DNA from: an uncultured Acidimicrobiia bacterium
Lineage (GTDB): Bacteria; Actinomycetota; Acidimicrobiia; Acidimicrobiales; AC-14
DNA: 64,000 nucleotides
Direction of reading: 5' to 3'
Assembly: GCA_963825765.1 (NCBI GenBank)
Contig: CAWGUU010000018.1
Span: forward strand, 16,401-80,400
Made by a program: the position numbers and the translations under genes. Under the pieces are notes generated by a model that saw only the letters and a program-made list of their open reading frames with translations, was not told the DNA's origin and did no database searches. Position 1 is the first letter of the stretch, and each line of letters begins with the position of its first letter. Of this stretch, positions 18,846-45,344 are shown in pieces.

Positions 18846-19279
18846 GTGCAGCCTTACGCCGCGAGGCGGGCCGAGGCGGTGCCGCCCGCGGCCAGGCTCA
18901 CCGGGGTCCGCACCGGTCGCCAGGAGGGCTACGACCGAATCGTTTTCGACTTCTCGGGGGCCCTCGCCGGGTCCGAGTCAGTGGAGTACGTCGCCCGGGT
19001 GACCCAGGACGGGTCGGGCGAGCCGGTGCCGTTGAGCGGCCAGGCATTCCTGAAGGTCGCGTTCTCGGTGGCCGAAGCCCATGATGGCAGCGGAGCCCTC
19101 AGCATCCCCCAGGGAAGGCGTTTCGACCCGAGGCTCACGACCGTCAAGGAAGTCGCCCTCGCCGGGGACTTCGAGGGCTACGTGAGCTTCGGCCTCGGAC
19201 TGGCGGTATGGTCGGCTTTCGCGTCTTCGAGCTGTCGAACCCTTCACGGGTCGTCGTCGACGTCGCCCACCCGTCCTAA
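18846..19279 (+). CDS. hypothetical exported-type protein, apparent frameshift near 19190-19200 and missing N-terminus
   Basis: ...GDFEGYVSFGLGLA then, in +2 frame, GFRVFELSNPSRVVVDVAHPS*; no signal peptide at N-terminus, consistent with 5' truncation by the adjacent IS. Confidence 0.35.
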
Positions 19280-19302
19280 GTCCCGTGCCCGCCGGAGCCC
19301 CA

Positions 19303-20343
19303 TCACCCGGTTCGGCCAGACTCGCGGCGGCCGCGCCCGCCGATCTTGCGCCGGCCGGGCCCGCCGGAGTGGTGACGGGCCGGCGCCTCCGAGCCGCCGA
19401 CAGCTCGACCGGGCAACGTCACGACGGCCGAGGTGGGTCCCGGAAGCTCGTCGTCGGAGCGATGGCCCCGGCGTCGACGGGCGATGAGGAACGCGGCGAC
19501 GACCAGCAAACCGGCGCCGGCAGCCAGAACCGGTCCGTTGCCCAGGCCGTCGACCCAGCGGGTGACAGAGCCCGACCACCGCCCGACGGCGTCGACGGGA
19601 CCGCTCGGGACGCTGCGGCCCTGCGCGAGGCGGATGTCGTAGTACCCATAATATGCGACGTAGGCGCCGGCGATGGCGAGCAGGGCTCCAGCCGCCTTCT
19701 GCACATGGGGCAGCACCCGGCGAAGTCGTCTGACCAGAGCCCCCTGAGCCAGGGCGACGGCCACTGTGAGTGTGCCCAGCACCATGGCCATGCCGGCCGT
19801 GTAGGCCCCGAATGCGGCGAGCCCCGACGCGGCGTCGGCCTGCTCGAAGGTGGACGCGACCGCCACCAGAAACGCCGGTATCGTGCACGACAGCGACACC
19901 GTGGCATAGGAGGCGCCGAAGCCCGCCATGGCGGCGAGTCCCCGATCGTTGCCGGCAATGCCGAGGCGCCCGGACCGGGCCAGGCGGGGGAGGGCGATCT
20001 TGGGCTGCCAGCCGCGGGCCATGGCCACGCCCATCGGCACGAGGGCCAGCCCGATCGCGATCGAGAGCCAGGGCGTGAAGCGCTGCACCGTGATCGACAG
20101 CTGGGTGATGGCGAAACCGGCGATGCCGAACACGAAGGCGAAGCCAACCGAGACGGCCGCCGCCACCCGCAGCGCACTGGCCACCCTGACTGCCCCACCA
20201 CCGCCTGCGGCACCGCCGACGATGTCGTCGTCGTCGGTGCCGAGGAAATAGGACAGGTAGGCCGGGAGGAGCGCGAACCCGCACGGGTTGAAGGCGGCGA
20301 CGACGCCGGCTGCGAACGCGAAGCCGATCGGGGCGTCGAGCAC
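19303..20343 (-). CDS. ccdA: cytochrome c-type biogenesis protein CcdA (DsbD transmembrane domain)
   Basis: AAFNPCGFALLPAYLSYF motif with the conserved Cys; 6-TM profile. Confidence 0.85.
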   Translation of the reverse strand: MLDAPIGFAFAAGVVAAFNPCGFALLPAYLSYFLGTDDDDIVGGAAGGGGAVRVASALRVAAAVSVGFAFVFGIAGFAITQLSITVQRFTPWLSIAIGLALVPMGVAMARGWQPKIALPRLARSGRLGIAGNDRGLAAMAGFGASYATVSLSCTIPAFLVAVASTFEQADAASGLAAFGAYTAGMAMVLGTLTVAVALAQGALVRRLRRVLPHVQKAAGALLAIAGAYVAYYGYYDIRLAQGRSVPSGPVDAVGRWSGSVTRWVDGLGNGPVLAAGAGLLVVAAFLIARRRRGHRSDDELPGPTSAVVTLPGRAVGGSEAPARHHSGGPGRRKIGGRGRRESGRTG

Positions 20344-20352
20344 GCCGCGGGT

Positions 20353-20952
20353 TCAGGCCACGCCGGCGGCGGCGAGGATCTCGTCGGGCTGGAAGTCCCG
20401 GAACCAGGTGCCAGCGACCTGGCCGTCGGCTCCGAGCACGATGACGGCGGGCTGGTTCGTGATCCCGTAATGGACCCAGGACCGGCCGCTCGGGTCCCAC
20501 ACCATCGTCAGACCTGCAGTCCGGGTCTCGTTGAGGAAACCGTGGGCCTGGTCGAGGGAGTCCTGGGCCCCGAGGCCGAGGATGTCGAGATCGCCGCCGT
20601 GCTTCGCTGCGAACTCGAGCAGCTCCGGGGCCTCGGCCCGGCAGAACGTGCAATGCGGTGCCCAGAACCACAGCAGCGCCGGCCGGCCCGGGGTCGCCAA
20701 CGACCGCAGGCCGACCGTCGAACCAGAGGCGAGCAGGACCACATCGACCGACGGCACGTCGGGTGCCGACTGCGAGGTGGACGCCCCGGGCTCCGTGGGC
20801 GCGGCCGGGGCGGCCGGGGCCTTCGCACTGTTCGGGCCCGACCGTTTACCCGCTGACCCATTCCCGTTCCCGGCACCGCAGCCTGCGTGGGCAATCATGA
20901 CCACGAGCACGAGCGCGGCGGCCTTGCCGCCCCGGAGGATCCGATCAATCAT
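20353..20952 (-). CDS. TlpA/ResA-like thiol-disulfide oxidoreductase lipoprotein
   Basis: lipobox AHAGC, thioredoxin fold with WAPHCTFC CxxC; adjacent to ccdA. Confidence 0.8.
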   Translation of the reverse strand: MIDRILRGGKAAALVLVVMIAHAGCGAGNGNGSAGKRSGPNSAKAPAAPAAPTEPGASTSQSAPDVPSVDVVLLASGSTVGLRSLATPGRPALLWFWAPHCTFCRAEAPELLEFAAKHGGDLDILGLGAQDSLDQAHGFLNETRTAGLTMVWDPSGRSWVHYGITNQPAVIVLGADGQVAGTWFRDFQPDEILAAAGVA

Positions 20953-21432
20953 CGTCCCAACGTAGAACGGGACCGCAAGCCCCGGACGTCGCGCCTGCCT
21001 CGACTACGTGGGCGGCCCGTGAGCCGTTGCACGCCCCCGCGATCGCAGAGCGCGCCTGGAGTCCCCGAAGTTCTACGTCTATCGCCAGGAGGTATTGAGC
21101 TTCCTCGCCCAACGCCGACGCGGCGTAGGTCATCGCCGGGTCGGCCTCGGCGGCACCGCGCGTACGCCCCTCCGGTGGTCGGCGCCCCCCGCAGATCACA
21201 GATAACAGTCCGGTTACGAACTCCATCGGCGGCGGTGTTCGTTGTCGTGCGGGGTAGGAGTGCCCTTGGATCCCCACTGCTCCGTTCGGGTTACGGTGGT
21301 CGCCATCGAGCATCTGCCAACGGGCTTGTATCAATGAATTCCGCGCGCGGCGGCGCGGCCCGTCGCCGGCCCCGGCTCCGGCAGAACGACCGAGCGGTCG
21401 GCGCCTCCAGTGGGGTAAGCCAAAAATCGGGG

Positions 21433-22512
21433 TTGGCCCCCCGGCTGTGGCCGGTCGCCCTTTTCCTGACAGTCCTCCTCGCCTGCGGCGGGGGTGAACC
21501 CAGCGAGGTGGCGGGCCCGACCACCACCAACCTGCCGCCGGCCTCGACCACCACCCAGCCGGGGATGGGGCTGACCCAGGAGTGCGTCACCGAGGCGGCC
21601 GGGTACCGGGTCCGGTATCCAGCCACCTGGTTCTCCAACGATCCCAGCCAGTCCGCCGAGTGCCGGTTCTTCCACCCCGAGCCGTTCGACGTGCCCCCGA
21701 ACACCGAGGCGACCGGATTCGCCATCGCCCTCAACGTCGAGCCCACCCCCTTCGCCGAACTTGCGTTGGGGCCCGAAGGGTCCGTGGCCTCGGAGGTGCA
21801 GGCGAGAGCAGAGACCACGGTGGCCGGGAGGATGGCGGTGCGGGCCGAGATCACCTCGACGGGCGAGGGCTTGCTCCCGTCCGGGGCCAAAGGGGTCGTC
21901 TACTTCGTGGACTTCGGCGGGTCGACCTTCCTCGGTCGGACCTATGGGTCGCCGAGCGCAGGCACGCTTGCCTCCAACACCCAGGTGCTCGACCAGATGA
22001 TGGGCACGCTCGCTCGGATCGAACTACCTTCACCACAGTGCTCCGCCAGCGGTGAGTCGCCAGCCGAGCTGCTTCAGGATCGTCTTCCCGCCGCCGTGAC
22101 CACCACCCGGGGCGAGATCATCGAGGCTGCGGTGGCATGCGACTACGACGGCCTGGCGGAGATCGCCCTTCGGGGCGATGCTCTCTTCACGTACAGCTTC
22201 GGCGGCGGCGACGATCCGGCCGGGTCATGGAGACAGGACGAGGCCGCCGGTCGGCCGGTGCTCCGAACCCTCGTCCGATTGATGAACACACCGTTCGCAT
22301 CCCGTGAGGTCACTGACGGCACGCAGTATGTGTGGCCGTCGGCCTTCGGGTACGAGCGCTGGCAGGATGTCCCCGCGTCGGAGCGAGAGGTCCTACGGCC
22401 CATCTACGACGACGACGACTTCCAGGGCTTCGATGCCTTCGGGAGCTACGTCGGCTATCGCGTCGGCATCACCGACACCGGGGACTGGGTCTTTTTCGTC
22501 GGCGGCGACTGA
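21433..22512 (+). CDS. lipoprotein, function unknown
   Basis: TTG start gives ideal lipoprotein signal (M)APRLWPVALFLTVLLAC; alternative ATG at 21334; Thr/Pro-rich linker. Confidence 0.55.
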   Translation: MAPRLWPVALFLTVLLACGGGEPSEVAGPTTTNLPPASTTTQPGMGLTQECVTEAAGYRVRYPATWFSNDPSQSAECRFFHPEPFDVPPNTEATGFAIALNVEPTPFAELALGPEGSVASEVQARAETTVAGRMAVRAEITSTGEGLLPSGAKGVVYFVDFGGSTFLGRTYGSPSAGTLASNTQVLDQMMGTLARIELPSPQCSASGESPAELLQDRLPAAVTTTRGEIIEAAVACDYDGLAEIALRGDALFTYSFGGGDDPAGSWRQDEAAGRPVLRTLVRLMNTPFASREVTDGTQYVWPSAFGYERWQDVPASEREVLRPIYDDDDFQGFDAFGSYVGYRVGITDTGDWVFFVGGD

Positions 22513-22588
22513 CGCGGACGACCGTCCGTCGGCGAACTGACACGGCTCCGCAATCGGACTGACGCATAGTGAGCGGATACTGCGAGCC

Positions 22589-22912
22589 ATGCAAGATCAC
22601 GATCCCGTCAACGACCGTGCGCGCCTGCGGGTCGGCATGCAGGGCGATGCGATGGTCATCGCGGCCCAGGGTGTCCTCGACGAGGCCGCGGTGGGCACCA
22701 TCGGCTCCGCCGCCGCCTGCGCGCTCAACTGCCAGTGTCGCCGCGTGCGCGTGGATCTCGGCAACGTGACAGGCCACACGGAGGGTGGAGCGCGAGCGTT
22801 CGCCGATCTTCTGGCCCGCCTTCCCGCCAGCGCTGCGGGCCGAGTGACCTACCACGCCAACTCGGAGGCGGCCCAAAACGTCCTGGTCGCCGCCTACGCC
22901 CGACTCGGCTGA
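22589..22912 (+). CDS. STAS-domain protein (anti-sigma factor antagonist-like)
   Basis: ARLRVGMQGDAMVIAAQGVLDEAAVGTIGSAAA...RVRVDLGNVT pattern. Confidence 0.5.
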   Translation: MQDHDPVNDRARLRVGMQGDAMVIAAQGVLDEAAVGTIGSAAACALNCQCRRVRVDLGNVTGHTEGGARAFADLLARLPASAAGRVTYHANSEAAQNVLVAAYARLG

Positions 22913-22928
22913 GCCATCATGTCCCCTC

Positions 22929-23609
22929 ATGGGGGCCCACATCCTGCTGGTCGAGGACGACAGGCGCATCCGGACCTCGCTGCGACTGGTCCTCGAAGAC
23001 GAAGGCAACACGGTCGACGAAGCCGAAAGCGCCGAGGTTGCCCTCGAGATGCTCGGTCGTCGGGCGGTCGAGGTGGCGATCGTCGACCTCATGCTTCCGG
23101 GCATGGACGGCTTCGAGCTGTGCCGCCGGCTGCGGGCGTCCTTCGACATCCCGATCCTGATCCTCACCGCTCGCTCCGACAGCCACGACGTGGTGGCCGG
23201 CCTCGAGGCCGGCGCCGACGACTACATGGTGAAGCCGGCCGTGCCCAAGGAGTTGTCGGCACGGGTGCGGGCTTTGTTGCGGCGCTCGGCGCGTTCGGGC
23301 TCCGAACCGCAGCGCCTCGCCTTCGGCGATCTCGAGATCCAGCCCGACGCGGGGGTCGTGCGACGCGGCGGGGCGGAGGTCTCACTCACCAAGACCGAGT
23401 TCGGTCTCCTGTGTGAGCTGGCGCAGGCGCCAGGGCGGATCCTGACCAGGGAGATCCTGCTCGGGAAGGTCTGGGGCTACGACTACTTCGGAGACGGGCG
23501 GCTGGTCGACGTCCACATCCGGAGGCTCCGCACGAAGGTGGAGGCCGATCCCGCGCACCCCCGCCACATCGTGACGGTCCGGGGCCTGGGCTACAAGCTG
23601 GAGCCTTGA
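22929..23609 (+). CDS. mtrA: OmpR-family response regulator (MtrA-like)
   Basis: receiver (ILLVEDD...DLMLPGMDGFELCRRLR...ADDYMVKP) plus winged-helix (VRGLGYKLEP). Confidence 0.85.
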   Translation: MGAHILLVEDDRRIRTSLRLVLEDEGNTVDEAESAEVALEMLGRRAVEVAIVDLMLPGMDGFELCRRLRASFDIPILILTARSDSHDVVAGLEAGADDYMVKPAVPKELSARVRALLRRSARSGSEPQRLAFGDLEIQPDAGVVRRGGAEVSLTKTEFGLLCELAQAPGRILTREILLGKVWGYDYFGDGRLVDVHIRRLRTKVEADPAHPRHIVTVRGLGYKLEP

Positions 23610-25005
23610 CGGCACCGTCGAACGAAGGCCGCCAACCGGCCGTGACCGTCAGCCGGATCGGCCTGCGCACCCGGGTCACAGTGGCCTTCGCCCTGGGAGC
23701 GCTGTTCCTGTCGATCGGCCTCGCCGGCATCACCTACCAGCTCTCGCGCACCTACCTGCTTCGTCAGCGGGAGACTTCGGTGCTCCGCCAAACCTATGCC
23801 AATGCCCGGCTGGTCAAGAGCGCCCTCCGGTCGCCCGAGCCGGACATCCCCCGGCTGCTGGCGTCCGTCGAGCTGCCGGCCGGCTCCAACGCCATCCTGC
23901 TCCACGAGGGAGTCTGGTTCGGCGCGTCCGTCGCCATCGGGTCCGAGGCCATCCCGGCCGACCTGCGAACGACCGTGATCGCAGGGGAAGCGGCCCGCCA
24001 GAAGTTCACGCAGGACGCAGTGCCGCGGTTCGTCGTCGGGATCCCCCTGCCCGCGGTGGATGGCGCCTATTTCGAGGTGTTCGCCTTGTCCGACCTCGAC
24101 CGCACCCTGGCGGTGCTGCGCAACTCGATCGCGGTCGCCGCCGTCGCCACGGCCCTTGCGGGTGCGGCGGTGGGGCGGTGGGCGAGCCGGCGGGTGCTGG
24201 CGCCGGTGGCCGACGTCTCCGCGGCCGCCGCGGCCGTCGCCGCAGGCCGACTGGATGTCCGCCTCGACGAGCGGGGGACGCGGACCTGTCGAGCATGGCC
24301 GTCTCTTTCAACCGCATGACCGACGCCCTCCAGGCGCGGATCCAGCGAGAGGCCCGTTTCGCCTCCGACGTCAGCCATGAGCTCCGGTCGCCGCTGACGA
24401 CCCTCGCCGCCGCGCTGAAGGTGGTCACCACTCGGCGGGACGAGATGCCTGAACGAGCACGGCAGGGCCTCGACCTGCTGTCGGAGGAGGTGGGGCGGTT
24501 CGGCCAGCTCGTCGAAGACCTCCTCGAGATCTCGAGGATCGACGCCGGCGTGGCCGAGCTGGCCCTCGAAGAGGTGGTGCTGGCCGAGTTCGTGCTCCAC
24601 GCCCTGCGCGCCGGCGGAGCCGGGATCGTGCCCGTGGAGATCGAGGGACCGGCGAGCGGCGCCGTCGTACAGGCCGACAAGCGCCGTCTCGAGCGGGTCG
24701 TGGCCAACCTCGTCGACAACGCCCGACGGTACGGCAACGGTGTGACCCGGGTGAGCGTGGAGCTCGGGGGAGCGTGGGTGCGCCTGGCCGTGGAGGATGC
24801 GGGTCCTGGCGTCGCCGTCGACGAGCGGGGACGGATATTCGAGAGGTTTGCTCGCGGGGCGGCGGGACGGCGCGCGGAGAGCGACGGGACGGGGCTCGGG
24901 CTCGCTCTCGTCCACGAGCACGTCCGGCTCCACGGCGGCCGGGTCCGGGTCGAGGAGCGAGCCGGGGGCGGCGCCCGCTTCGTCGTCGAGCTCCCGGCCG
25001 TCTGA
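23606..25005 (+). pseudogene. mtrB: sensor histidine kinase (MtrB-like) interrupted by -1 frameshift in G5 run at 24273..24277 (possibly a sequencing error)
   Basis: N-terminal TM/sensor part ends ...RLDVRLDERG in one frame; HAMP/HisKA/HATPase (SFNRMTDAL..SHELRSPL..GTGLGLALV) continue in next frame; overlaps mtrA stop. Confidence 0.75.
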
Positions 25006-25586
25006 TGCGTCGAACCCGACTGGTGCCGTGGCTCGTCTCCGGGGTGGCCCTCGTCCTCGTCGGCTGTGGTGTCCCCTCCGATTCAGCGCCGCGGACGATC
25101 CCTCCCGAGAACGTGCCCTTCGGGCTGCTCGACCTCGACACGACCGTCCCGTCGACCTCCGTTCCCGATGTCTCCCTGACGCTCGAGGTCTATCTCGTCT
25201 CGGGTAGCCGACTGGCGGTGGTCGGTCGCGTCTTGTCGTCGCCCGTCACTCCGAGCGGGTCGCTCCAGGCGCTGCTCCTGGGCCCGACCGCCGACGAGGC
25301 CGGTCGTGGCCTACGCACCGCTATAGGAACCGACTCCGGGCTGTCGGTCTCGTCTGTCGATGCGGGCCAGGTGCGGGTCGAGTTGGGTGAGTCGTTCGGC
25401 GCCACGAGCGCGTCCGACCAGATCCTGGCGATCGCCCAGATCGTGTACACCGTCACCGCCCTCCCGGGCGTCGAGAAGGCGACCTTCACCCTTGCCGGGC
25501 GGGCGGTCGACGTCCCGACGGGCGACGGCACGCTGACATCCGGCCCCCTCGGCCGCCAGGACTTCCCGGGCCTCGCCCCGGCGTGA
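25005..25586 (+). CDS. GerMN-domain lipoprotein (short LpqB-like)
   Basis: ATG overlaps mtrB stop (TGATG); lipobox LVGCG; downstream of MtrAB as lpqB is in actinobacteria but only about 193 aa. Confidence 0.6.
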   Translation: MRRTRLVPWLVSGVALVLVGCGVPSDSAPRTIPPENVPFGLLDLDTTVPSTSVPDVSLTLEVYLVSGSRLAVVGRVLSSPVTPSGSLQALLLGPTADEAGRGLRTAIGTDSGLSVSSVDAGQVRVELGESFGATSASDQILAIAQIVYTVTALPGVEKATFTLAGRAVDVPTGDGTLTSGPLGRQDFPGLAPA

Positions 25587-25692
25587 TCGTCACCGGATCG
25601 ACACATGTTGGGCCGACCACCTTCACCTGGGACCGTCATTCTGATGCCATGACGAACTCTGGCAGACGATCCACCAGGCTGACGAGCACGAC

Positions 25693-26043
25693 ATGCACGT
25701 CGTGATCGACTCGACCGAGGCGTCCCGGACCGTGTGTCGCCTCTCCGGGGCGCTGGATTCGGAGCATGCGGCCCAGCTCGGCGCGACACTGGCTGCCTGC
25801 GACGAGGCTGCGGACCTCGCCGTCGATCTTTCGGACGTCTCGTTCATGGATTCCGCGGGACTGAGGGTCCTGGTCGGTGGGGTGCGACGGGTCCACTACG
25901 GAGGTGGGGCCGTCGTCGTCTGCGGAGCCCGTCCCAACATCCGACGACTGCTCGAGCTGACCGGGTTCGACCGGGTCGCTCCCCTGGAGGCCGAACCCGT
26001 CACCCCGGGGCCGCTGCGGACGGTGACCGTCGCGGCCGTATGA
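25693..26043 (+). CDS. STAS-domain anti-sigma factor antagonist
   Basis: VDLSDVSFMDSAGLRVLVG...RRLLELTGFDRV SpoIIAA-like. Confidence 0.7.
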   Translation: MHVVIDSTEASRTVCRLSGALDSEHAAQLGATLAACDEAADLAVDLSDVSFMDSAGLRVLVGGVRRVHYGGGAVVVCGARPNIRRLLELTGFDRVAPLEAEPVTPGPLRTVTVAAV

Positions 26044-26119
26044 GGCATCTCAACTCATTCGGTCACGCAGCTATGGACCCGGAAACCTAGCCCGAGGGGT
26101 GAGCGCGTAGCATCGGTCA

Positions 26120-27373: not shown

Positions 27374-27377
27374 GGGC

Positions 27378-28918: not shown

Positions 28919-29271
28919 TTAGGCGTCGCCACTCGCGGCCAGGTCGGGCTCATTGACTTTGGTCGCCTCGTAGGCGGCGTTGAGCGAGCTCACGACCGGG
29001 ACGACCCGGTCGAAGCCTGTGACCGACAGGAGGCGCCCGACGGCGCTACCGGAGCCGACACAGAGAGCCACCCTGCCCCTGTGATCCGAGCTTGGCGGAT
29101 ACCGAAGATGACAGCGCCCAGCCCCGCTGAGTCCATGAACGGCACTGCCCGGAAGTCGATGAGGACCGTTCCGAGCGTGGCGGCGATACGCAGACGCTCT
29201 CGGAGCTCACTCGCGTTCGACAAATCGACCTCTCCATGCACCTGGACTGTGACGCCACCGCGGCCGGCCAT
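28919..29271 (-). CDS. STAS-domain anti-sigma factor antagonist, frameshifted in a C4/G4 run near 29066..29069
   Basis: GAGGA RBS + ATG 29271; ...FMDSAGLGAVIFGIRQAR then alternative frame gives canonical STAS end ...GRVALCVGSGSAVGRLLSVTGFDRVV... Confidence 0.6.
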
Positions 29272-29676
29272 GGTGTGTTCCTCGAGTTTGCAGCGACATC
29301 GACGACTCCTTCTGGTCGGCCGCGGATGCGCCCGGTGGCGACATCGACATCGCCGGAGACGGACGCCCAGGCGCCGCCTCGTAGCGCCGTCGGCCAACTG
29401 GCGATGGGGCTTTCCGTTCGCGTGGCCCGTTGTCTTTGATTGGCGGCCTCGCAGGCATCCTGCGGTTCCGACCTGACGATCCTGCTTCGGCCACCTTGCG
29501 ATCCCGTGACATTCGATAGATCACGTCATTGACCAGGCTCTCCCGTGGGAAGCTCGGGCAGAGGCCGACGATTCGTTTCGCGACTCTCACGTACCCGACG
29601 AGCGGGAGTCCGTCCCGGAGAGCGTTGGTGCGACCCCCGGTATCCCAAGGGTCGTGCCGGGGCCAGGAATCGTGGC

Positions 29677-32640: not shown

Positions 32641-33720
32641 ATGAATACGTCGACCGGCGACACCGGCAACGGTCGCTGGATCGCGGCAGGCACGACGATC
32701 GTGGCCGCGACCATCGACCTCATCTACGGCGTGGAGGCGTCGCTGATCGTGCCCCTGGTCTTCGGACCATTCGTCGCGTCCGCACTGGCTTCGGTCCGAG
32801 ATACCGCGACCGTGGCCGTGGTGGCGACGTTGTTCGGCGTCCTCCTGGGCTGGACGGACCAGACCATCGGCACCTCCCCCCACGCCGTCCGCGTCGCTTC
32901 GGTGGCGATCGGGGGGACGCTCGCCGTCTGGCTCGCATCCACGCGCACCGCTCGCGAGCAGAAGCTGCAGGCCATGACCCGTGTGGCTCACGTGGCCCAA
33001 CAGGCGATCCTCCGCCCCCTCCCCGACGAGATCCGGTGCATCCGGCTCGCAGCCCGGTACGTGTCTGCATCGGCAGAGGCGCAGATAGGCGGCGACTTCT
33101 ACGAGGCGCTGGACACGCCGTGGGGCGTCCGGATCGTCGTCGGCGATGTCCGCGGGAAGGGACTCGACGCAGTGCGCCTGGCGGCGGTGCTCCTGGGCGA
33201 GTTCCGCAGTCGCGCCTTCTCGGAGCCGGACCTGACCGCGGTCGTCAAGGCCGTCGATGACGCGGGCGGTCGTGCGGTCGACCAGGCCGGCGAGGACTTT
33301 GCGACCGCGGTGTTCGTTCAACTCGACGGAGCACAGGCCACGATCGTCCGTTGCGGGCAGCCGCTCCCCTTTCTGGCGCAGAGTCAGGAGGTCCATCCGA
33401 TCGAGACCTACACGTCGCTGCCGCTCTGCCTCGGCACGGATGCCGTAGCCGACGAGGTCAGCCTGGGACCGGGGTCACGGATGCTGCTCTACAGCGACGG
33501 TGCGATCGAGGGGCGCGACGAGAGAGGCGACTACTTCGACCTTCAGTCGAGCTACCAGCGACATGTGGGCACCCCCGAACCCGGAACGGTGCTCGAGCTG
33601 ATCCTCGACGACCTGGACCGCCACTGCGACGGGGGGATCACCGACGACGTCGTTCTGGTGATCGCCGAGCAGCCTGGCTGGGCAAGGAGCTCGACTGGGT
33701 GTTCATGGCCGCCCTGCTGA
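32641..33720 (+). CDS. membrane-anchored PP2C-type Ser/Thr phosphatase (SpoIIE/RsbU-like)
   Basis: N-terminal TM segments; GGDFYEALD, VGDVRGKGLDA, LLYSDGAIEG, DDVVLVIAE metal-binding motifs; tail reads into secF remnant. Confidence 0.8.
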   Translation: MNTSTGDTGNGRWIAAGTTIVAATIDLIYGVEASLIVPLVFGPFVASALASVRDTATVAVVATLFGVLLGWTDQTIGTSPHAVRVASVAIGGTLAVWLASTRTAREQKLQAMTRVAHVAQQAILRPLPDEIRCIRLAARYVSASAEAQIGGDFYEALDTPWGVRIVVGDVRGKGLDAVRLAAVLLGEFRSRAFSEPDLTAVVKAVDDAGGRAVDQAGEDFATAVFVQLDGAQATIVRCGQPLPFLAQSQEVHPIETYTSLPLCLGTDAVADEVSLGPGSRMLLYSDGAIEGRDERGDYFDLQSSYQRHVGTPEPGTVLELILDDLDRHCDGGITDDVVLVIAEQPGWARSSTGCSWPPC

Positions 33721-34259
33721 CCGTCATCGGCTACTCGATCAACGACTCGGTGGTCGTGTTCGACCGTATCCGGGAACTGCGCCGGGACCGGCAGCGGGAG
33801 CCGCTGCGGGAGGTGGCCAACGACGCCTGCCTGCAGACGGTTCCCCGCACCATCAACACCGGCCTCGGAGCCCTGTTCATCCTGGTCGCCCTCTACCTGC
33901 TCGGGGGCGAGACGCTCCGAGACTTCGCCCTGGCGCTACTCATCGGCATCGTCGTGGGGACGTACTCCTCGGTGTTCACGGCCACGCCCCTCGCCCTGCG
34001 CTTCGAGGCCCTCGCCAACAGGTCGGATACCCCCTCGTCGCCACTTCGCCCGCAGCCGGCCAACGGGGTGCTCGCTCCCAAAGCGCCCACCAGGACCCCC
34101 ACGGCGACTGTGGCGCCCGGCCCATCCGCCACCTCTCAATCGAATGCGGCCGAGGCGAAGCAGTTGCCGGCGCCCCCGGCGCGACCGAAGCGACCGACGC
34201 ATGCGACCACCCAGCCTCGGCCCCGCAAGAAGCGCCGAAAGCAATCCAGGAGGAGATGA
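33681..34259 (+). pseudogene. secF: secF 3' fragment (C-terminal about 150 codons plus Pro/Lys-rich tail); N-terminus and secD absent
   Basis: WVFMAALLTVIGYSINDSVVVFDRIRE...TVPRTINTGLGALFILVALYLLGG...IGIVVGTYSSVFTATPLAL matches SecF TM4-6; no start codon/upstream part. Confidence 0.7.
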
Positions 34260-36247: not shown

Positions 36248-36348
36248 GCGAGGAGGCCGTGCCCCTCGACGGCGACGCCCTGGGGTGCTAGCACGGCGTC
36301 GTGGCCACCGACACCGCCCGGGCGGAACCGACGCTGCCGCCGGCGCGA

Positions 36349-36861
36349 CGGATGGCCCAGGGCCTGGCCGCCCTGCGCATCTTCACGGGAACCATCCTGT
36401 TCGCCAACGGGCTGGCCAAGCTGCTGGGGATCACGACGATCACCCTCGGCCCCTACCAGGCGAACCTCATCGACCGGGAGGCGACCCGCTTCATCCTGCG
36501 CTTCGAAGGGCTCGAGAACCCGGCCAACGGGGGAGCCGGTACCGAGGTACCCGGCCTCGAACCGGTGGTGCGATTCCTGCTCGACAACTTCGGCACCGTG
36601 GAGTGGCTCATCACTGCCGCCGAGCTCGCCGTCGGCGCCCTTCTGATCGTCGGCCTGGCCAGCCGGGGAGCGGCGATCCTCGCCCTTGGCCAGCACCTCT
36701 TCCTGGCCTTGCTGTACGCCTCATCGAACCGTTGGCTGTTCGAGCAGCCCCACGAGTACCTGCCGCTGCTCATCCTCGCCCTGGTCTCGTCGGGCCGCGT
36801 GTGGGGCCTCGACGGTCGCCTGGCGTGGGCTCGGGCCCGCGCCGGGAGGTTCCCGTTCTGA
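36349..36861 (+). CDS. DoxX-family membrane protein
   Basis: MAQGLAALRIFTGTILFANGLAKLLG DoxX-like; GTG at 36301 possible alternative start. Confidence 0.6.
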   Translation, partial: RMAQGLAALRIFTGTILFANGLAKLLGITTITLGPYQANLIDREATRFILRFEGLENPANGGAGTEVPGLEPVVRFLLDNFGTVEWLITAAELAVGALLIVGLASRGAAILALGQHLFLALLYASSNRWLFEQPHEYLPLLILALVSSGRVWGLDGRLAWARARAGRFPF

Positions 36862-38028: not shown

Positions 38029-38230
38029 TTGTCGCACCGAGCAGGCGCCGCCCCGACGGGCGTCGAGCAGCGAGCAGAACAGTGGCTCGGAGTCGAAGCG
38101 GGGCACGCACAGCCAGACCACCGCCCCGTCACGGCCCACGAGGGCCGCGGTCGTACCATCGCCGATGAGACCGAGGTCTTCCAGCGCGGGGTAGCCGTGG
38201 TAGTTCAGCGGGGCAGTCGTCACGCCAACC

Positions 38231-38854
38231 CTACGACAAGGGGGCCCGGCCGGAGTTCGGCCGCGGGGACGATATCGTCGAGGGCCTCGACGTTGGCGGG
38301 ATAGGCGCCGGCGGAGGAAAGCGTGCTTTCCCCAACTCGGTCCGGGTGAGGTGGACCTCGTCGCCGTGACAGCCTACGACGCCTTCATCCGGGAGGATCT
38401 CGACCCGTCCGCCGAACTCGATGCGGGCAGGGCCGGTGGCGTGGTCACGGGACCGCCGCAACATGGCACGGATCCTGGCCGCCAGTTCCTTCTCTCGAAC
38501 GGCTTGGCCAGGTAGTCGTTCGCTCCCGCTTCGAGCCCGGCCACGACGTCGTAGGCATCGGTGCGGGCGGTGACCATGATGATGGGAAATGCTGCGGCTC
38601 CGAATGGCCCGGCAGGTGTCGAAGGCGTTGCCGTCCGGCAGCATCATGTCGAGCAGCCCGCAGTCGGCCGGTCGGCGCTCGAACCGGGTGATCGTCTCGC
38701 GGCCACCTGCGGCCTGGTGGACGTCGTAACCCTCGTCCTCGAGGAGGACCGCCGACTGGCTCCGGATGCTCTCGTCGCCCTCGACAAGCAGAATGAGTCC
38801 GGGCATCCCACCATTGTCCCGCATCGAGCTGGGTTGTCCGAAGACGGGCGTCAT
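38231..38854 (-). pseudogene. OmpR-family response regulator remnant with multiple frameshifts
   Basis: receiver pieces (LILLVEGDESIRS..., DYLAKPFE in another frame) and wHTH piece ([12 protein letters not shown]...LTRTELG) spread over at least 2 frames. Confidence 0.5.
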
Positions 38855-38981
38855 GGCACGGCTACCGCCAGGACCCCGGCGTCTCGGTCGACCGTCTCCG
38901 CCCTCAACTCCTTGGCGGTCGCCTCGTCGAGTCCCCTAACCTCGCCGCTTCTTCGGTACTCTACCTGGGTATAGTAAGTAT

Positions 38982-39263
38982 ATGCCTGGATATGCCATGG
39001 ACAAGGACGACCTGCTGAAGCGGCTGCGCCGGGTCGAGGGCCAGGTCCGGGGCCTTCAGCAGATGGTGGAGGAGGGCCGTTATTGCATCGACGTCCTCAC
39101 CCAGATCTCGGCCGCGACCAAGGCCCTACAGAGTGTGGCCATGGGCCTGCTCGACGACCACCTCCGCCACTGCGTGGCCGATGCGGTGGCCACTGGAGGT
39201 CCGGAGGCGGACAAGAAGCTGACCGAGGCCACCGCCGCCGTCGCCCGCCTGATCAGAAGCTAG
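38982..39263 (+). CDS. csoR: CsoR/RcnR-family metal-sensing repressor (copper-sensing CsoR-like)
   Basis: [31 protein letters not shown]...H..C with C-H-C ligands. Confidence 0.85.
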
Positions 39264-39275
39264 GAGGAGGACCGC

Positions 39276-41417
39276 ATGCATCCCACCCACGACACAGCAC
39301 CGACGGTCCACGACGACGATGGGATCGACACCGGAGTCGGACACCCAGACGGCCACGACCAGCCGGCGGGTGAGCACGGCGACACCGGGAGCCATGGAGG
39401 TCATGGTGACCACGTCGCCATGTTCCGACGGCGGTTCTGGTGGAGCCTGCTCCTGACGATCCCCCTCGTGGCTACCAGCCACATGGTCATGGACTGGCTC
39501 GGCTACGAGATCGACTTCCCCGCCATGGCCTGGGTCGGGCCCGTCCTCGGCACCGGCATCTTATTCTGGGGTGGTTGGCCCTTCCTCTCCGGTGGATGGT
39601 CGGAGGTCCGCGGTCGTCGTCCCGGGATGATGCTCCTCATCTCCATGGCGATCACGGTGGCCTACACCGCGTCGCTGGCCACGAGCCTGGGATGGTTCGA
39701 CCTCGACTTCTGGTGGGAGCTGGCGGCGCTGATCACGATCATGCTCCTGGGTCACTGGCTGGAGATGCGGGCCCTGGGCCAGGCCCAGTCGGCGCTGGCC
39801 GCCCTGGCCGCGCTGCTGCCCGACGAGGCAGAGCGGGTCCGCCCCGGCGGCGAGATCGAGACGGTGTCGACCTCGGTCCTCGGGCGCGCCGATGTGGTGC
39901 TCGTGCGGGCCGGCGGGCGCGTGCCGGCCGACGGCGTCGTCGTGGACGGCGAGGCCGAGCTGGACGAGTCCATGGTCACTGGCGAATCCCGCCCGGTGGC
40001 CAAGGGCGCCGGCGACCCGGTCATCGCCGGCACGGTGGTGACCGATTCGGCCCTCCGCGTCCGGGTGGAGGCGGTCGGCGACGACACCGCCCTGGCCGGC
40101 ATCCAGCGCCTGGTGGCCGAGGCCCAGGCATCTCGGAGCCGGGCCCAGGCCCTTGCCGACCGCTTCGCCGCCCTGCTGTTCTATGTCGCGGCCGGCTCCG
40201 CGGTGGTCACCTTCGTGGGCTGGTGGGCGGCGGGCTCGCTCGACGACGCGGTGGTGCGCACCGTCACCGTGCTGGTCATCGCCTGCCCCCACGCCCTCGG
40301 CCTGGCCATCCCCCTGGTGGTCTCGTTGTCGACGGCCGTGGCCGCCCAGGCCGGCATCCTGATCAAGGACCGGCTGGCCCTGGAGCGCATGCGCACCGTC
40401 GATGCGGTGCTGTTCGACAAGACCGGGACCCTCACCAAAGGTGAGCACGCCCTCACTGCCGTGGCCGGGGTCGGCTTCGACGAGGATCAGGTCCTGCGCA
40501 TGGCGGGTTCGGTCGAGTCCGACAGCGAGCATCCGTTGGCCCGGGCCATCGTGGCCGCGGCCCACCAGCGCGGCTCGGTGTCGCCCGCCAGCCAGTTCCG
40601 CTCCATCGTCGGCCGGGGCGTGGAGGCCACGGTTGACGGTCAGCGCTACGCCGTCGGGGGTCCCGCCCTGCTCCGGGAGCGTCAGCTCACCGAACCGGTT
40701 TCGCTGAAGGAGGCTGCCGATCAGTGGCGGTCGCGGGGCGCGGCGGTCCTCTACCTCGTGCGCGGGGACGAGATAGTCGGTGCGCTCGCCCTTGAGGACG
40801 AGATCCGGCCGGAGGCGGCCGAGGCCGTGGCCGAGCTGCGCCGGATCGGCCGGCGGGTGGTGATGATCTCCGGCGACGCCCGCCAGGTGGCAGAGTCCGT
40901 CGGTGCCGCCCTCGGGTTCGACGAGGTCATGGCCGAGGTCCTGCCCGAGGACAAGGACGCCAAGGTGGCCGAGCTGCAGGCCCGGGGCCTGCGGGTGGCG
41001 ATGGTGGGCGACGGGGTCAACGACGCCCCCGCCCTGGCCCGGGCCGATGTGGGCATCGCCATCGGCGCCGGGACCGACGTGGCCATGGAGTCCGCCGGCG
41101 TCGTGCTCGCCTCCAACGATCCTCGGGCGGTGGTGTCGGTCATCCGACTGTCCCAGGCCAGCTACCGCAAGATGATCCAGAACCTGGCCTGGGCCGCCGG
41201 CTACAACATCCTCGCCATCCCCCTGGCGGCGGGTGCGTTCTCGTGGGCCGGCATCACCCTGTCGCCCGCCGTCGGGGCCATCCTCATGAGCGGCTCGACC
41301 ATCGTCGTCGCTCTCAATGCCCAGCTCCTGCGGCGCATCCAGCTCCGACCCACGACCTCTGCCGCCGATTACTCGCAGGAGCCACATGAAGCTCTCCCGT
41401 CCGCTCGTAGCGCGTGA
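39276..41417 (+). CDS. copA: heavy-metal (copper) P1B-type ATPase, CPH type with His-rich N-terminus
   Basis: TAGGAGGAGG RBS; CPHALGLA, DKTGTLT, GDGVNDAPAL; N-terminus HDDDGIDTGVGHPDGHDQPAGEHGDTGSHGGHGDH instead of CxxC. Confidence 0.9.
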   Translation: MHPTHDTAPTVHDDDGIDTGVGHPDGHDQPAGEHGDTGSHGGHGDHVAMFRRRFWWSLLLTIPLVATSHMVMDWLGYEIDFPAMAWVGPVLGTGILFWGGWPFLSGGWSEVRGRRPGMMLLISMAITVAYTASLATSLGWFDLDFWWELAALITIMLLGHWLEMRALGQAQSALAALAALLPDEAERVRPGGEIETVSTSVLGRADVVLVRAGGRVPADGVVVDGEAELDESMVTGESRPVAKGAGDPVIAGTVVTDSALRVRVEAVGDDTALAGIQRLVAEAQASRSRAQALADRFAALLFYVAAGSAVVTFVGWWAAGSLDDAVVRTVTVLVIACPHALGLAIPLVVSLSTAVAAQAGILIKDRLALERMRTVDAVLFDKTGTLTKGEHALTAVAGVGFDEDQVLRMAGSVESDSEHPLARAIVAAAHQRGSVSPASQFRSIVGRGVEATVDGQRYAVGGPALLRERQLTEPVSLKEAADQWRSRGAAVLYLVRGDEIVGALALEDEIRPEAAEAVAELRRIGRRVVMISGDARQVAESVGAALGFDEVMAEVLPEDKDAKVAELQARGLRVAMVGDGVNDAPALARADVGIAIGAGTDVAMESAGVVLASNDPRAVVSVIRLSQASYRKMIQNLAWAAGYNILAIPLAAGAFSWAGITLSPAVGAILMSGSTIVVALNAQLLRRIQLRPTTSAADYSQEPHEALPSARSA

Positions 41418-41807
41418 TCGCCATAGGCCTTGTCGACATGGCGTGCGGTGGCGCCTACAGGCCCACGACCAGCGCAGGCAACAAAGGGGCACCCGCACTG
41501 TCGAGTTGTCGATGGTAGACAACCGTTTCGAGCCCGCCGCCCTCACTGGGGGGCGGGCGAGAAGGTCAAGTTCGTCATCCGCAACAACGGCAGCGTCGTC
41601 CATGACGCCTTCGTCGGCGATGCCGCCGCCCAGGCCATGCACGAGACCGACGCGATCGCCGCCGCCGCCGACCCCGTGGTCACCGTCGAGCCGGGCATGA
41701 CCGGCACGCTCACCCACACGTTCGACCAGGCAGGTGACGTCGAGATCGGCTGCCACGAACCTGGCCACTTCGCCGGTGGAATGAAGATGGATGTTGCGGT
41801 CTCCTGA
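41386..41807 (+). CDS. cupredoxin (plastocyanin/azurin-like) lipoprotein, reading frame broken by at least 2 indels at G-runs (41486..41489, 41548..41553)
   Basis: pieces MKLSRPLVA / IAIGLVDMACGG / TVELSMVDNRFEPAALT / GEKVKFVIRNNGSVVHDAF...GCHEPGHFAGGM (type-1 Cu ligands H,C,H,M) in three frames. Confidence 0.6.
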
Positions 41808-42595
41808 CTGCCCGGGGGCAGCCCGCCCGGCGGCCGGTGGGGGGCGGGTGGTAACGCCCGACGATGGCGCGCACGGTCACAGTCGGGCAGGCCTTCTGCG
41901 CCGCCACCCGCTGCTATCCGCTCTCCTCGCGCTGACCCTGGGACTGGTCGGCATCTGGGGCGTCCGGCTCTGGCATCTCCAGCAAGAGGTCGATCGCTAC
42001 CGCCGCTACTGGTCGCGGGCCAGGGGCGAGCCCGGTGGGATCCTCTACGTGCGCCCTCGGGGATTCGACCGCTCAGGGGATCGGTGCCAGTGGACCGGAC
42101 AAGGGCTACGTCGGGTTGATCGCAGACCGACTCCGGGCGGCGAAGGGCCGCCCGGTGCAGGTCATCAACCTCAGCCGCACGGGGGCACGTGTCGACGACG
42201 TCGTCGCAGACCAGCTGCCGAAGCTGGCCGGGCTGACCCCCGACGTCGTCACCGTCGCGGTTGGCGGCAACGACATCCGGCACTACGACGCCGTCCGCTT
42301 CCGCTCCGACGTCGATGCGTTGATCGCAGGGTTGCCGGCCGGCGCCGTGGTGGGCGACGTCCCGTGGTTCATGCACGGGGGCACGGGGCGAGACTCCGCC
42401 GAGGCCGCCGCATATGTGACCCAGGTCGCCGAATCCCGAGGGCTGCCGGTCGCAGGGCTCCACGAAGCGATGCAGCGGAGGGGTTGGGCGAGCATGCTCA
42501 CCGACTTCTCCGCGGACTGGTTCCATCCGAGCAACCGGGGCTATCGGATCTGGGCTGACGCATTCTGGGAGGCGGTGAACAAGCCCCGGCGCTGA
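41791..42595 (+). CDS. SGNH/GDSL hydrolase with N-terminal TM, single-nt indel near 42050
   Basis: ALGDSTAQG (block I), VGGNDI (block III), DWFHPS (block V); N-terminal TM segment in adjacent frame. Confidence 0.6.
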
Positions 42596-42932
42596 CGGCG
42601 CTGAGACTCCCGCCGTCGCAGTTTCCGTGGCGGGCCTCAAGACATCCTGATCCGGGCGACCCAACTGCCTGGTCGGCGCGGTCCGAGGCCCAGGAGCGCG
42701 CCTCGAGGAGCCGGTACTGAGGGGTGGGCCGCCGACTGCCGCGTGGGAACCCGGCGCTTAACCCGTGGGGACGGTGACCAATGCATCGGGAAAGTCCGGG
42801 TCAACCCGTACATGTGAACCGCCCACGCACGCGCACTGCGTCCCGCTGCGGCCCGTAGGGGCGACGGCGGATCTGGCGGAGTGAGATATTCGAGGAAGGA
42901 GCTATTCGCGTCGGGAGCGTCGCCTGGGTGCT

Positions 42933-43433
42933 GTGACACCCGCCGGTTCCTGCTTGGACGAGCCCCTGCTGGCGAGGCTGGGTCTTCGAGCCGGGGAGGT
43001 CGCTGCCCTCGAGCTGGGTGACGTCGACTGGCGGGCCGGGGAGATCCTGGTGCGGGGCAAGGCACGACGCCAGGACCACCTCCCGCTTCCCGTCGAGGTG
43101 GGCGAGGCGCTGGTGGCCTACCTGCGCGACGGTCGTCCGTGCTGCCAGTGGCGGCAGCTGATCGTCACCCTCTACGCGCCCTTCCGGCCGATCCATCCCA
43201 GTTCCATCACCAACGTCGTCTATCGCGCCTGCCGGCGAGCCGGAATTGCCCGGGTTGGCGGTCACCGTCTGCGCCATGCCCTGGCCACCGAGATGCTGCG
43301 CCAGGGCGGGGACCTGATCGAGATCGCCCAGGTGCTGCGTCATTCCGACCTGGGGACCACCTCCGGCTACGCCAAAGTCGACCGGGTCGCGCTGCTCATA
43401 GTGGCCCAGCCCTGGCCGGGGACGGAGCGATGA
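42933..43433 (+). pseudogene. tyrosine recombinase fragment (catalytic C-terminal domain only; RitA-like, 5'-truncated)
   Basis: [44 protein letters not shown] (R..HxxR..Y); stops in all frames upstream. Confidence 0.6.
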
Positions 43434-44359
43434 GCAGCTTCGCCGACCACGCCCAGGACTACCTGCGACTCCGACGGGCCCTGGGCCACGAACTGGCTGA
43501 GGCCACCCGGCTGCTCCCCCGCTTCGTGGCCCACCTGGACTCGGTCGGGGCCACGACCATCACCGTCGAGATCGCCCTGGCCTGGGTGCGGCGTCCCGAC
43601 GCGGACCCGACGAGCTCCGTGTGGTTCCGGCGCATGACCGTGGTCCGGGGCTTCGCCCGCCACATGTCGGGCATCGACGCCGCCACCGAGGTCCCGCCGC
43701 TCGGGTTGGTGAGCTTCCGGCGGCACTGGCGGCCGCCGTTCATCTACTCCCGCGACGACGTCGTGGCGTTGATGGCCGAGGTCCCCCGGCACACCCCCTC
43801 ACCCCTGCGGGCGGCGACCTTCCAGACCATGATCGGACTGTTGGCGGCCACCGGCATGCGGGTGGGCGAGGCCATCGGCCTGGCCCGTCGCGACGTGGAC
43901 GCGGTCGGGGGAGTGATCACCGTCAGGGCCTCCAAGTTCAACAAGTCCCGGGAGCTGCCACTGGAGCCGACCACGGTGCACGCGCTCGGGGCCTATGCCG
44001 AGGTCCGAGACCGGTTCGTGTCGGCGCCCACCAGCCCCACTTTCTTCCTCTCCCGGGCCGGGACCCCGGTGATCTACACCGACTTCGGAACCAAGTCCCG
44101 CATCCTGGTCGATGCCGCCGGGGTGGGGGCCGACTCGCCGGTGCGGCCCCGTGTCCATGACCTGCGCCATTCGTTCGCGGTCGCCACCCTGGTGCGCTGG
44201 TATCGGGCGGGCGAAGACGTGGGCGCCCTGCTGCCGAGGCTGTCGACCTACTTGGGCCACCTGTCGCCCGGCTACACGTACTGGTATCTGTCGGCTGCCC
44301 CCGAGCTGCTGGCCCTGGCCGCCGGCCGCGTGGAGGCGGCGGAGGCGTCCCGACCGTGA
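43430..44359 (+). CDS. tyrosine recombinase (RitB-like), 309 aa
   Basis: MRVGEAIGLARRDVD, HDLRHSFAVA, LGHLSPGYTYWYL. Confidence 0.75.
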   Translation: MSSFADHAQDYLRLRRALGHELAEATRLLPRFVAHLDSVGATTITVEIALAWVRRPDADPTSSVWFRRMTVVRGFARHMSGIDAATEVPPLGLVSFRRHWRPPFIYSRDDVVALMAEVPRHTPSPLRAATFQTMIGLLAATGMRVGEAIGLARRDVDAVGGVITVRASKFNKSRELPLEPTTVHALGAYAEVRDRFVSAPTSPTFFLSRAGTPVIYTDFGTKSRILVDAAGVGADSPVRPRVHDLRHSFAVATLVRWYRAGEDVGALLPRLSTYLGHLSPGYTYWYLSAAPELLALAAGRVEAAEASRP

Positions 44360-45344
44360 GCCTGCTCGCTCCCACCCTGCAGCTGTTCTTCACCGAGCGG
44401 CTGGCCAAGCAGCGCCAGGCCAGCCCGGCCACGGTGACCTCCTATCGCAACACCTTCCGGCTCCTGCTGCGCTTCGTGCAGGAGACCACCGGCAAGGCCC
44501 CCTCCACCCTGGATTGGGCCGACCTGGACGTCGAGGTGATCTCGGCCTTCCTGGACCACCTCGAGACCGACCGCCACAACAGCGCCCGCAGCCGCAACAC
44601 CCGCCTGGCCGCGCTTCGTTCGCTGTTCCGCTACGCCGCCCTCCGCCACCCAGAGCACGCCCAGCTCATCGCCCAGGTGCTGGCCATCCCCCAGAGCGCT
44701 ACGACAAGACCATCGTGGCGTTCCTCGAGCCCGAGGAGGTCGACGCCCTCTTGGCCGCTCCCGACCTGAGTTGGTGGGAGGGACGGCGCGACCGGGCGCT
44801 GATGGCCCTGGCCGTGCAGACCGGCCTGCGCCTCTCCGAGCTGACGGGGATCCGCTGCGGTGACATCGAGCTCGGCAACGGCGCCCACCTGCGCTGCACC
44901 GGCAAGGGTCGCAAGCAGCGCTGCGTCCCGCTGACGGCCTCGACCGTCGCCGTTCTCCGGGTTTGGCGTCGGGAGCGGGGTGGCCTGCGTGATGATCCGC
45001 TGTTCCCCACAAGAACCGGGCGGCGCCTCAGCGACGATGCCGTCGAGGCCAGGGTCGCGACCCACAAGGCGACGGCCACCACCCGCTGTCCGTCCTTGGC
45101 CACCAAGCGCCTGACGCCCCACGTCCTGCGCCACACCTGCGCCATGGTCCTGCTGCGAGCCGGGGTCGACGTCGCCGTCATCGCCCTCTGGCTCGGGCAC
45201 GCCGACATCCGCTCGACGCAGATCTACCTCCACGCCGACCTGAGCATCAAGGAACGAGCGCTCGCCCGCACCACGCCTGCGACCTCCAAGCCAGGGCGCT
45301 ACCGACCTCCCGACAGCTTGCTGGCGTTCCTCGAGAACCTGTGA
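44356..45344 (+). CDS. tyrosine recombinase (RitC-like), frameshifted in C5 run 44688..44692
   Basis: N-terminal SAM-like domain in one frame, then ...RYDKTIVAFLEPEEVDALL...LRLSELTGIRCGDIEL...HVLRHTCAM...IYLHAD in next frame. Confidence 0.7.

Follow-up and report, generated by a model that had tools for sequence, protein, structure and literature searches.

The window analysed here is a 64,000-nucleotide stretch (positions 16,401 to 80,400 of the forward strand) of contig CAWGUU010000018.1 from an uncultured Acidimicrobiia bacterium (assembly GCA_963825765.1), with a base composition of ~70% G+C. Within several of its genes the same-strand coding signal, followed by a frame model based on G+C at third codon positions (GC3) and by frame translations, passes from one reading frame to another, and tracing these passages gave a total of about 11 single-base breaks in otherwise intact accessory genes. 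Each break was repaired by adding or removing one base, and the products were then scanned against Pfam. A preliminary description of this DNA had named a set of frame-broken genes and placed several of the breaks in G/C homopolymers; all the genes it named do carry single-base shifts, and one-base repair yields full-length Pfam domains across the junctions. The density of 10 breaks per 25.5 kb is, in our judgement and without a computed baseline, not what would be expected from an accurate assembly of intact genes. For comparison we used seven related contigs (L numbers below), found via exact-protein and homologue look-ups: L001 spans window positions 22538–36775 at 96–99% identity, L004, L009, L010, L011, and L012 (five assemblies from four samples) span 38883–42635, and L005 is ~92% identical to the window.

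The leftmost affected gene is AMIN-like (18846..19279, plus strand). Its joined protein matches the AMIN-like family PF24837 over positions 2–129 of 129 (E=1.4e-38), and the single-nucleotide indel suspected here lies between 19205 and 19211, where the five nucleotides GTATG (19206–19210) stand in place of six, outside any homopolymer. An MtrB-like histidine kinase gene (23606..25005, plus strand), with an MtrA-like regulator (22929–23609) and a Germane-domain lipoprotein as neighbours, has lost one G from a run that is G5 in the window (24273..24277) and G6 in L001, which splits the HAMP domain; the repaired product comprises HAMP (1–53 of 53), HisKA, and HATPase_c. On the minus strand, a STAS gene of the anti-sigma-factor antagonist type (28919..29299) is broken twice. 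A C4 run at 29076..29079, G4 on the coding strand, is one base short (CCCCC in L001, CCTCC in L004), and an extra T near the 5′ end of the gene (TT to TTT, 29287..29289), overlooked before, is private to the window. Repair restores a STAS domain (7–106 of 106), and intact 126-residue gene calls are present in L001 and L004. Both the HAMP and the STAS junctions are in frame in L001, with G6 and C5 against the G5 and C4 of the window.

Further downstream on the plus strand, a cupredoxin gene (41414..41807) follows the genes for CsoR and a Cu-ATPase and, once repaired, encodes a Copper-bind domain (13–98 of 99); 131-residue gene calls exist for it in L004, L009, L010, and L012. It carries two breaks, the first in a G4 run one base short (41486..41489; GGGGG in four of five relatives and GGCGG in L009), the second in GGG at 41555..41557, which is GGGG in five relatives. 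The adjacent SGNH/GDSL hydrolase gene (41848..42595, plus strand; 248 residues when intact, Lipase_GDSL_2 1–178 of 178 after repair) contains an extra G at 42051, the bracketed base in GT[G]CGCC, which copies neither neighbouring base and is absent from all five relatives. The frameshift-truncated open reading frame (ORF) that results in the window (42035–42595, 186 residues, beginning MGSSTCALGDSTAQG) is exactly a recorded protein, P0247, in NCBI and ENA. In the third tyrosine recombinase of a recombinase in trio (RIT) element (44356..45344, plus strand; 329 residues and Phage_int_SAM_1 plus Phage_integrase 2–169 of 172 when repaired), an A is lost from CAG-AAG at 44694..44696, so that the window reads CAGAG. 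This deletion, at 44695, is absent from contig L008, which has CAGAAG, and from the family consensus AIPQKRYDK; the recombinase is exactly 329 residues long in 116 of the 120 homologues listed, and 110 of those 120 match the repaired protein along its full length (100%).

Two of the affected genes are less tidy. A response-regulator remnant (38333..38806, minus strand; Response_reg 1–109 of 111 after repair) carries two compensating shifts within its receiver domain, an extra base at 38590 and a missing base at ~38494, neither in a homopolymer. Its winged-helix output domain is absent, and it is followed by a GH15-like N-terminal fragment recognized by eye only (~38047–38193). It had been described as multiply broken, and is so, though the accompanying statement that the frameshifted genes are otherwise intact holds for the kinase, STAS, GDSL, third RIT recombinase, and AMIN-like genes, which are full length after repair, and not for this one. 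A small CBM48-like gene (48068..48332, minus strand), beyond the range of the preliminary description and absent from it, has its frame broken at 48263–48266, between GDFN and GWDP, again outside a homopolymer. It was identified, as were the IstB-like pieces considered below, from motifs recognized by eye; the Pfam scan returned no family for either set of pieces or for the ORFs at 16565–18853, 18172–18897, and 20857–22509.

The association of the breaks with G/C homopolymers proved to be partial. The run positions proposed for the kinase (24273..24277) and for the first cupredoxin break (41486..41489) are correct, as is the hydrolase indel at about 42050, and three of the five runs originally proposed are not the site of a break. 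The STAS run had been placed 10 nucleotides away, at 29066..29069, which reads AGCC; the G6 at 41548..41553 in the cupredoxin gene differs from GTGGGG in the relatives by one T/G substitution, the loss being in the GGG beyond it; and the missing A of the recombinase lies two bases past the C5 run (44688..44692) that had been held responsible. Enrichment near runs is nonetheless real: four of the six breaks that can be positioned fall in runs of at least four, which cover 5% of positions (p ~9e-5), and with all assemblies pooled eight of 14 breaks lie in, or within 3 nucleotides of, such runs (p ~5e-5). Overall, only ~4 of 11 breaks are in G/C runs of at least four, and among the ~700 such runs within the window four are affected. 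By inspection, no sequence motif other than G/C runs is shared around all the private indels. In two of the runs shortened in the window, the middle base is itself variable among the relatives through substitution (G/C at 41487, C/T at 29078).

The provenance of the data bears directly on how these breaks are to be read. A 38-mer from the flotillin gene of the window matches two GTDB representative metagenome-assembled genomes (MAGs), MFD01916.bin.1.57 and MFD01916.bin.2.63, both recorded as “MAG: uncultured Acidimicrobiia bacterium” and both ~98% identical to the window, with neither identical. The nearest relatives (96–99.9% identity) are Flye contigs, and every close relative is filed as a “contig_N” record under ENA assemblies ERZ25039476 to ERZ25039530, which belong to the Microflora Danica long-read project. 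We strongly infer that the window stems from the same project. Its long reads were produced on FLO-PRO114M (R10.4.1) flow cells with Guppy super-accurate basecalling (PMC12313526), and were assembled with Flye (--meta --nano-hq) and polished once with Medaka, without short-read polishing (PMC12313526); an origin in long reads without short-read polishing thus holds for all the close relatives. The same group has reported that R10.4 consensus is near-finished only from ~40x and that bins below this coverage still require Illumina polishing (PMC9262707). JGI metagenome contigs, scanned twice with allele-tolerant patterns around the kinase G run and the GDSL insertion, gave no match to either allele.

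Comparison with the sister assemblies revealed that the breaks at 24273, 29076, 29287, 41487, 41555, and 42051 are each private to the window among the relatives that cover them (one to five); the AMIN-like gene and the response regulator lie outside the coverage of close relatives. The relatives are broken as well, at other places. In L001 the same kinase gene carries two inserted Gs, at 23963 and 24874, and is called as a 537-residue chimera fused to the next gene; this contig further lacks a T at 33317, which splits the SpoIIE gene, and has an extra C at 33817. The contigs L004, L009, L010, L011, and L012 form a tight clade, with 7–16 single-nucleotide polymorphisms (SNPs) between pairs and ~2% divergence from the window, and within it the Cu-ATPase of L012 falls into pieces of 506 and 219 residues through an inserted G at 40566, L011 is missing a G at 41814 and has an extra C at 41956, and a missing A at 42479 in L004 puts catalytic block V of the GDSL hydrolase out of frame. 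The private frameshifts number four in L001, at least one or two in L012, two in L011, one in L004, and none or one in each of L009 and L010, giving 0.1–0.3 private coding frameshifts per kb per assembly; the window is similar, with six in the 18 kb for which comparison is possible. Singleton indels stand to singleton SNPs as ~4–5 to 18 in the clade, and every one of these indels is a coding frameshift. In the 90% cluster of the GDSL hydrolase, four copies of 248 or 247 residues (P0241, P0362, P0365, and P0364) are intact and three are broken differently, with 186 residues in the window, 277 in L004, and 192 in L011; one of the four intact copies comes from a Logan contig, a 247-residue hydrolase that equals P0362 (248 residues) minus one N-terminal residue.

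The form of the indels is informative too. The insertions at 42051, at 40566 in L012, at 41956 in L011, and at 23963 in L001 duplicate no neighbouring base, and the deletions at 44695 and at 42479 in L004 lie beside rather than inside G/C runs, which makes both a poor fit to replication slippage. Real mutation does not typically insert a base that copies neither neighbour. For the kinase, adding one G to the window and removing the two extra bases from L001 gives the same 466-residue protein in both, encoded with 11 codon differences (seven synonymous and four nonsynonymous). Three independent frameshifts against 11 substitutions point to a gene that was under purifying selection until essentially now. 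Elsewhere, the ratio of nonsynonymous to synonymous change (dN/dS) was rejected as a discriminator, given the small counts of synonymous and nonsynonymous substitutions (cupredoxin 2 and 10, GDSL hydrolase ~3 and 6) and the fact that the intact ATPase itself has 10 and 17; only the kinase signal is usable.

Two other differences between the window and its relatives are of a different character. At the end of a first STAS gene, a 60-nucleotide stretch (26010–26066, against 3477–3543 of L001) is ~12 bases longer in L001 and shows scattered single-base gaps; either the segment has been replaced or one of the two assemblies is of low quality at this place. The window and L001 have in common a 2-nucleotide indel (32651–32652) that sets them apart from L004, L009, and L010; lying at the 5′ end of the gene for the SpoIIE phosphatase, it shifts the predicted start (359 against 377 residues), and its inheritance makes it look like a real indel.

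Taken together, the clean single-base breaks are for the most part likely, with a fair margin for doubt, to be errors in the consensus of a metagenome assembly built from Nanopore reads only and not mutations of the organism. Error is favoured because the indels are private in every assembly and differently placed in the same conserved genes, with insertions that copy no neighbour and deletions beside rather than inside G/C runs, a pattern that consensus error predicts and inherited pseudogenes do not. Such a reading would cover the kinase, STAS, cupredoxin, GDSL, and third RIT recombinase genes, with the AMIN-like and CBM48-like genes as probable further cases. It agrees with what is known of Oxford Nanopore consensus errors in that the indels are of single bases, enriched in or beside homopolymers, and private to one assembly with independent assemblies intact, and in that the relatives were assembled by Flye and Medaka without short-read polishing (PMC12313526); PMC9262707 describes such consensus indels and how they depend on coverage, and PMC12007338 a correction tool for gene-fragmenting errors. 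The preliminary description had likewise preferred errors to old pseudogenes, and of its proposals this is the best supported, on account of the private breaks, the Nanopore-only relatives, and the frameshifts of the sister assemblies, with the qualifications that the errors would not be mainly homopolymer errors and that real decay exists alongside them. The choice between error and real mutation is drawn here from sequence comparison, and proof depends on the reads.

Where the breaks lie has to be set against this. L005 joins window positions 13584–16367 directly to 38906–41450, then to 41683–42002, and then to 54007 onward, so that the CsoR and Cu-ATPase genes come directly after yajQ and tRNA-Tyr, and an acetyltransferase gene and tuf after the GDSL region. 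Because it joins their flanks directly, the segments at 16.4–38.9 kb and 42.0–54.0 kb, absent from L005, are strain-specific islands, the first beginning at tRNA-Tyr (16284–16366) and the second ending at a truncated tyrosine integrase. All the breaks except the two in the cupredoxin gene are strictly inside these two islands, and those two (41487 and 41555) fall in the variable stretch 41450–41683, which is unaligned in L005 and was assigned to the islands in the counts. Unbroken frames were seen in all the core genes: nuoC to nuoN, acs, htpX, an M23 peptidase gene, yajQ, the acetyltransferase gene, tuf, and rpmG, as well as a sigma/anti-sigma pair, secE, nusG, rplK, and rplA.

Several observations weigh against consensus error. 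No break was found in ~22 kb of core compared with 11 in ~37.6 kb of islands, where the island rate predicts ~6.5 in the core (P(0) ~0.0015). Within one shared segment, the 2.4 kb of the CsoR and ATPase genes have none and the 1.2 kb of the cupredoxin and GDSL genes have three. Errors should be blind to gene function and to selection, and the breaks are not distributed in that way, so that the error reading needs a further premise, on coverage or on mixed haplotypes. Runs of G4 to G6 are normally resolved in R10.4.1 consensus (PMC9262707), and the breaks differ from classic Nanopore errors in that only ~40% of them are in runs of at least four, with lengths of 4–6 nucleotides, and in being confined to accessory islands shared by co-occurring genomes. 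Indels between the window and L001 looked far denser in intergenic DNA than in genes (by inspection, uncounted), and many of them are probably real evolutionary differences for that reason. Undoubted gene remnants occur within the same islands. Finally, the substitutions separating the cupredoxin gene of the window from that of the clade are 10 nonsynonymous and two synonymous, and in that gene a compensated pair of indels, a missing G at 41733 and an extra C (T in L009) at 41765, is common to all five relatives (four samples).

The restriction to islands and the few, short runs point to mixed-haplotype or low-coverage effects rather than to classic homopolymer miscalls. In outline, the contig would come from a Flye --meta assembly of modest coverage with a single Medaka polish, and both islands would be built of segments common to co-occurring related genomes at 98–99.9% identity. 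Acting like collapsed repeats in the assembly graph, these shared segments would draw reads from several haplotypes, so that the effective coverage of any single haplotype is low and the consensus may gain or lose single bases, chiefly in or beside short G/C runs and at haplotype-variable positions; the genome-specific core would be polished cleanly. The middle-base substitutions at 41487 and 29078 are consistent with this idea. Mixed-haplotype pile-ups are a plausible explanation of the island restriction because bin.1.57 and bin.2.63, which come from one sample and are separate GTDB species representatives, share the CsoR–ATPase–cupredoxin–GDSL segment, represented by L004 and L010 (ERZ25039485, one soil sample), with 16 SNPs in 3.76 kb. 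The flanking core appeared clearly less similar where comparison was possible, ~91–93% against L004 (over short stretches of 134–189 bp) and 86–93% against L005. The near-identity of the segment beside such flanks suggests that the copper-resistance module was recently exchanged between co-occurring Acidimicrobiia.

The shared cupredoxin pair is itself of interest. Its two members lie 32 nucleotides apart (L004 12460–12491), and between them the copper-ligand motif of the window, GDVEIGCHEPGHFAGGM (copper-site segment GDVEIGCHEPG), is replaced in the relatives by VTSRSAATNLA; the window alone keeps the functional frame here. We rejected the possibility that these are private errors of L004, as five relatives from four samples share both. 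For the same reason either real indels or a systematic artefact must exist in this gene; the clade may truly have undergone a compensated double frameshift, or the pair may be such an artefact. CCWGG motifs adjoin both 41733 and 41765; a methylation-linked systematic error was considered on this ground and remained a supposition.

The principal alternative is that the breaks are real and recent mutations, the tRNA-flanked and mobile-element-rich islands being under relaxed selection and their genes inactivated one at a time by single-base indels. We regard this as possible, and clearly less probable than consensus error. The confinement of the breaks to the islands, the unbroken core, and the gene remnants speak for it, as do the real-looking double frameshift of the five relatives, the 10:2 excess of nonsynonymous changes in the cupredoxin gene, and the occurrence of two hits in each of two short genes (cupredoxin and response regulator) with the ATPase spared; the G/C runs that hold four of the six positioned breaks are hot spots of true slippage too. 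The islands also resemble mobile-element graveyards in which pseudogenes decay, being strain-specific and tRNA-flanked, with remnants of integrases, RIT elements, and insertion sequences, truncated genes, a nonsense codon, and relaxed cupredoxin substitutions.

These remnants are genuine. A C-terminal SecF fragment (33672..34259, plus strand; SecD_SecF_C 76–186 of 189 only) starts at a rearrangement breakpoint, 33674, seen against L004, L009, and L010. The first RIT recombinase (42954..43433, plus strand) is truncated at its 5′ end and retains only Phage_integrase 31–169 of 172, without the N-terminal domain. A C-terminal IstB-like fragment (45476..45720, plus strand; by eye) has an in-frame TGA at 45599–45601 where such homologues have Trp (TGG), and the tyrosine integrase at the right edge of the second island (52864..54006, minus strand; by eye) is truncated at its 3′ end right after HSLRH. 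Together with the response regulator and the GH15-like fragment, these are cases of genuine decay, beyond what base-calling error produces. The preliminary description had extended its doubt to every pseudogene call in the window; the clean breaks are indeed suspect, whereas the truncated remnants and the IstB stop are not explicable by homopolymer error.

What counts against real mutation is that the clean breaks are uninherited and mostly in genes without other lesions. No clean break of the window is common to any of up to five relatives. The differing private frameshifts of relatives from the same pipeline, the one in the Cu-ATPase included, break sister copies of the same or neighbouring conserved genes in different ways and would demand parallel pseudogenization in many populations. 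The kinase combines three frameshifts with 11 mostly synonymous substitutions, and the histidine kinase, STAS, GDSL, third RIT recombinase, and AMIN-like genes are full length after a one-base repair (two for STAS), with no further lesion. The non-duplicative insertions add to this.

Far less credible is that the G/C runs are contingency loci, at which reversible changes of length (phase variation) toggle the kinase, STAS, and cupredoxin genes and the assemblies caught different phases. Homopolymeric-tract phase variation is known from the contingency loci of Neisseria and Campylobacter, and reversible frameshifts are known in the 7C tract of glpK in Mycobacterium tuberculosis. As in such systems, the frame switches with run lengths that are off by one between assemblies (G5/G6 at 24273, C4/C5 at 29076, G4/G5 at 41487, and G4/G5 at 41814). 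Phase-variable tracts are, however, typically at least seven long and vary in both directions; the tracts here are 4–6 nucleotides, just four of the ~700 runs are affected, over half of the breaks lie outside runs, run lengths depart from the in-frame length only by the loss of one base, and the breaks do not cluster towards 5′ ends or promoters. A broader version, in which unusually short tracts and their flanks in the islands switch frame reversibly at a high rate and co-occurring soil Acidimicrobiia populations hold different on/off combinations, strikes us as similarly improbable. Programmed ribosomal frameshifting or transcriptional slippage yielding full-length proteins can practically be dismissed, as nothing beyond short runs at some junctions favours it, the shift site is conserved in no relative, and the homologues are single ORFs (116 of the 120 listed RIT recombinases at 329 residues, four GDSL hydrolases of 248 or 247 residues, and intact STAS and cupredoxin genes).

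Some further features of the window deserve mention. The RIT element (42833–45455) is inserted relative to L004, L009, and L012; its second recombinase is intact, and the IstB-like fragment follows it. The copy in L008 is 94% identical, and its first recombinase also seems fragmentary (an 85-residue gene call with no Pfam match). In the same island, ~1.5 kb at 45938–47485 (~67% G+C) is without coding signal, and reading the ORF translations gave no recognizable ORF on either strand. A gene at 50171–52816 contains, at 51005–52318 (minus strand), three tandem 507-nucleotide repeats with 97–100% identity over the best-matching 300 nucleotides, encoding three near-identical GAF-like modules (by eye) of a histidine kinase that adjoins a LuxR-type regulator. 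The module may have been triplicated recently, or the assembly may have expanded it. A perfect 15-nucleotide tandem repeat of 11.5 copies (29824–29995), coding for (TTPPT)n, lies in the N-terminal linker of an L,D-transpeptidase with YkuD and PG_binding domains, and the overlap of BLAST alignments to L001 at this place suggests that the copy number differs between the window and L001. At the right end, 59742–64000 is 76–79% G+C and open on both strands for more than 4 kb, Gly/Ala-rich (GGAGG...) on one strand and Pro/Ala-rich on the other, and resembles the gene of a very large repetitive surface protein.

There is no new biological feature here, and the matter is one of annotation quality: roughly one in four accessory genes of the window looks pseudogenic. 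Pseudogene calls in this window are for now best limited to the truncated remnants, which stay valid, with frame-aware annotation for the other genes, and a correction aimed at homopolymers only would miss over half of the breaks. The clean core genes on the same contig imply that genome-wide quality scores may mask a local problem of this kind. If the breaks are mostly errors, Nanopore-only MAGs would be an unreliable basis for counting pseudogenes, inferring metabolism, and analysing selection, and the parts affected here are the most ecologically interesting ones: horizontally shared islands, mobile elements, and the genes for metal resistance and signalling.

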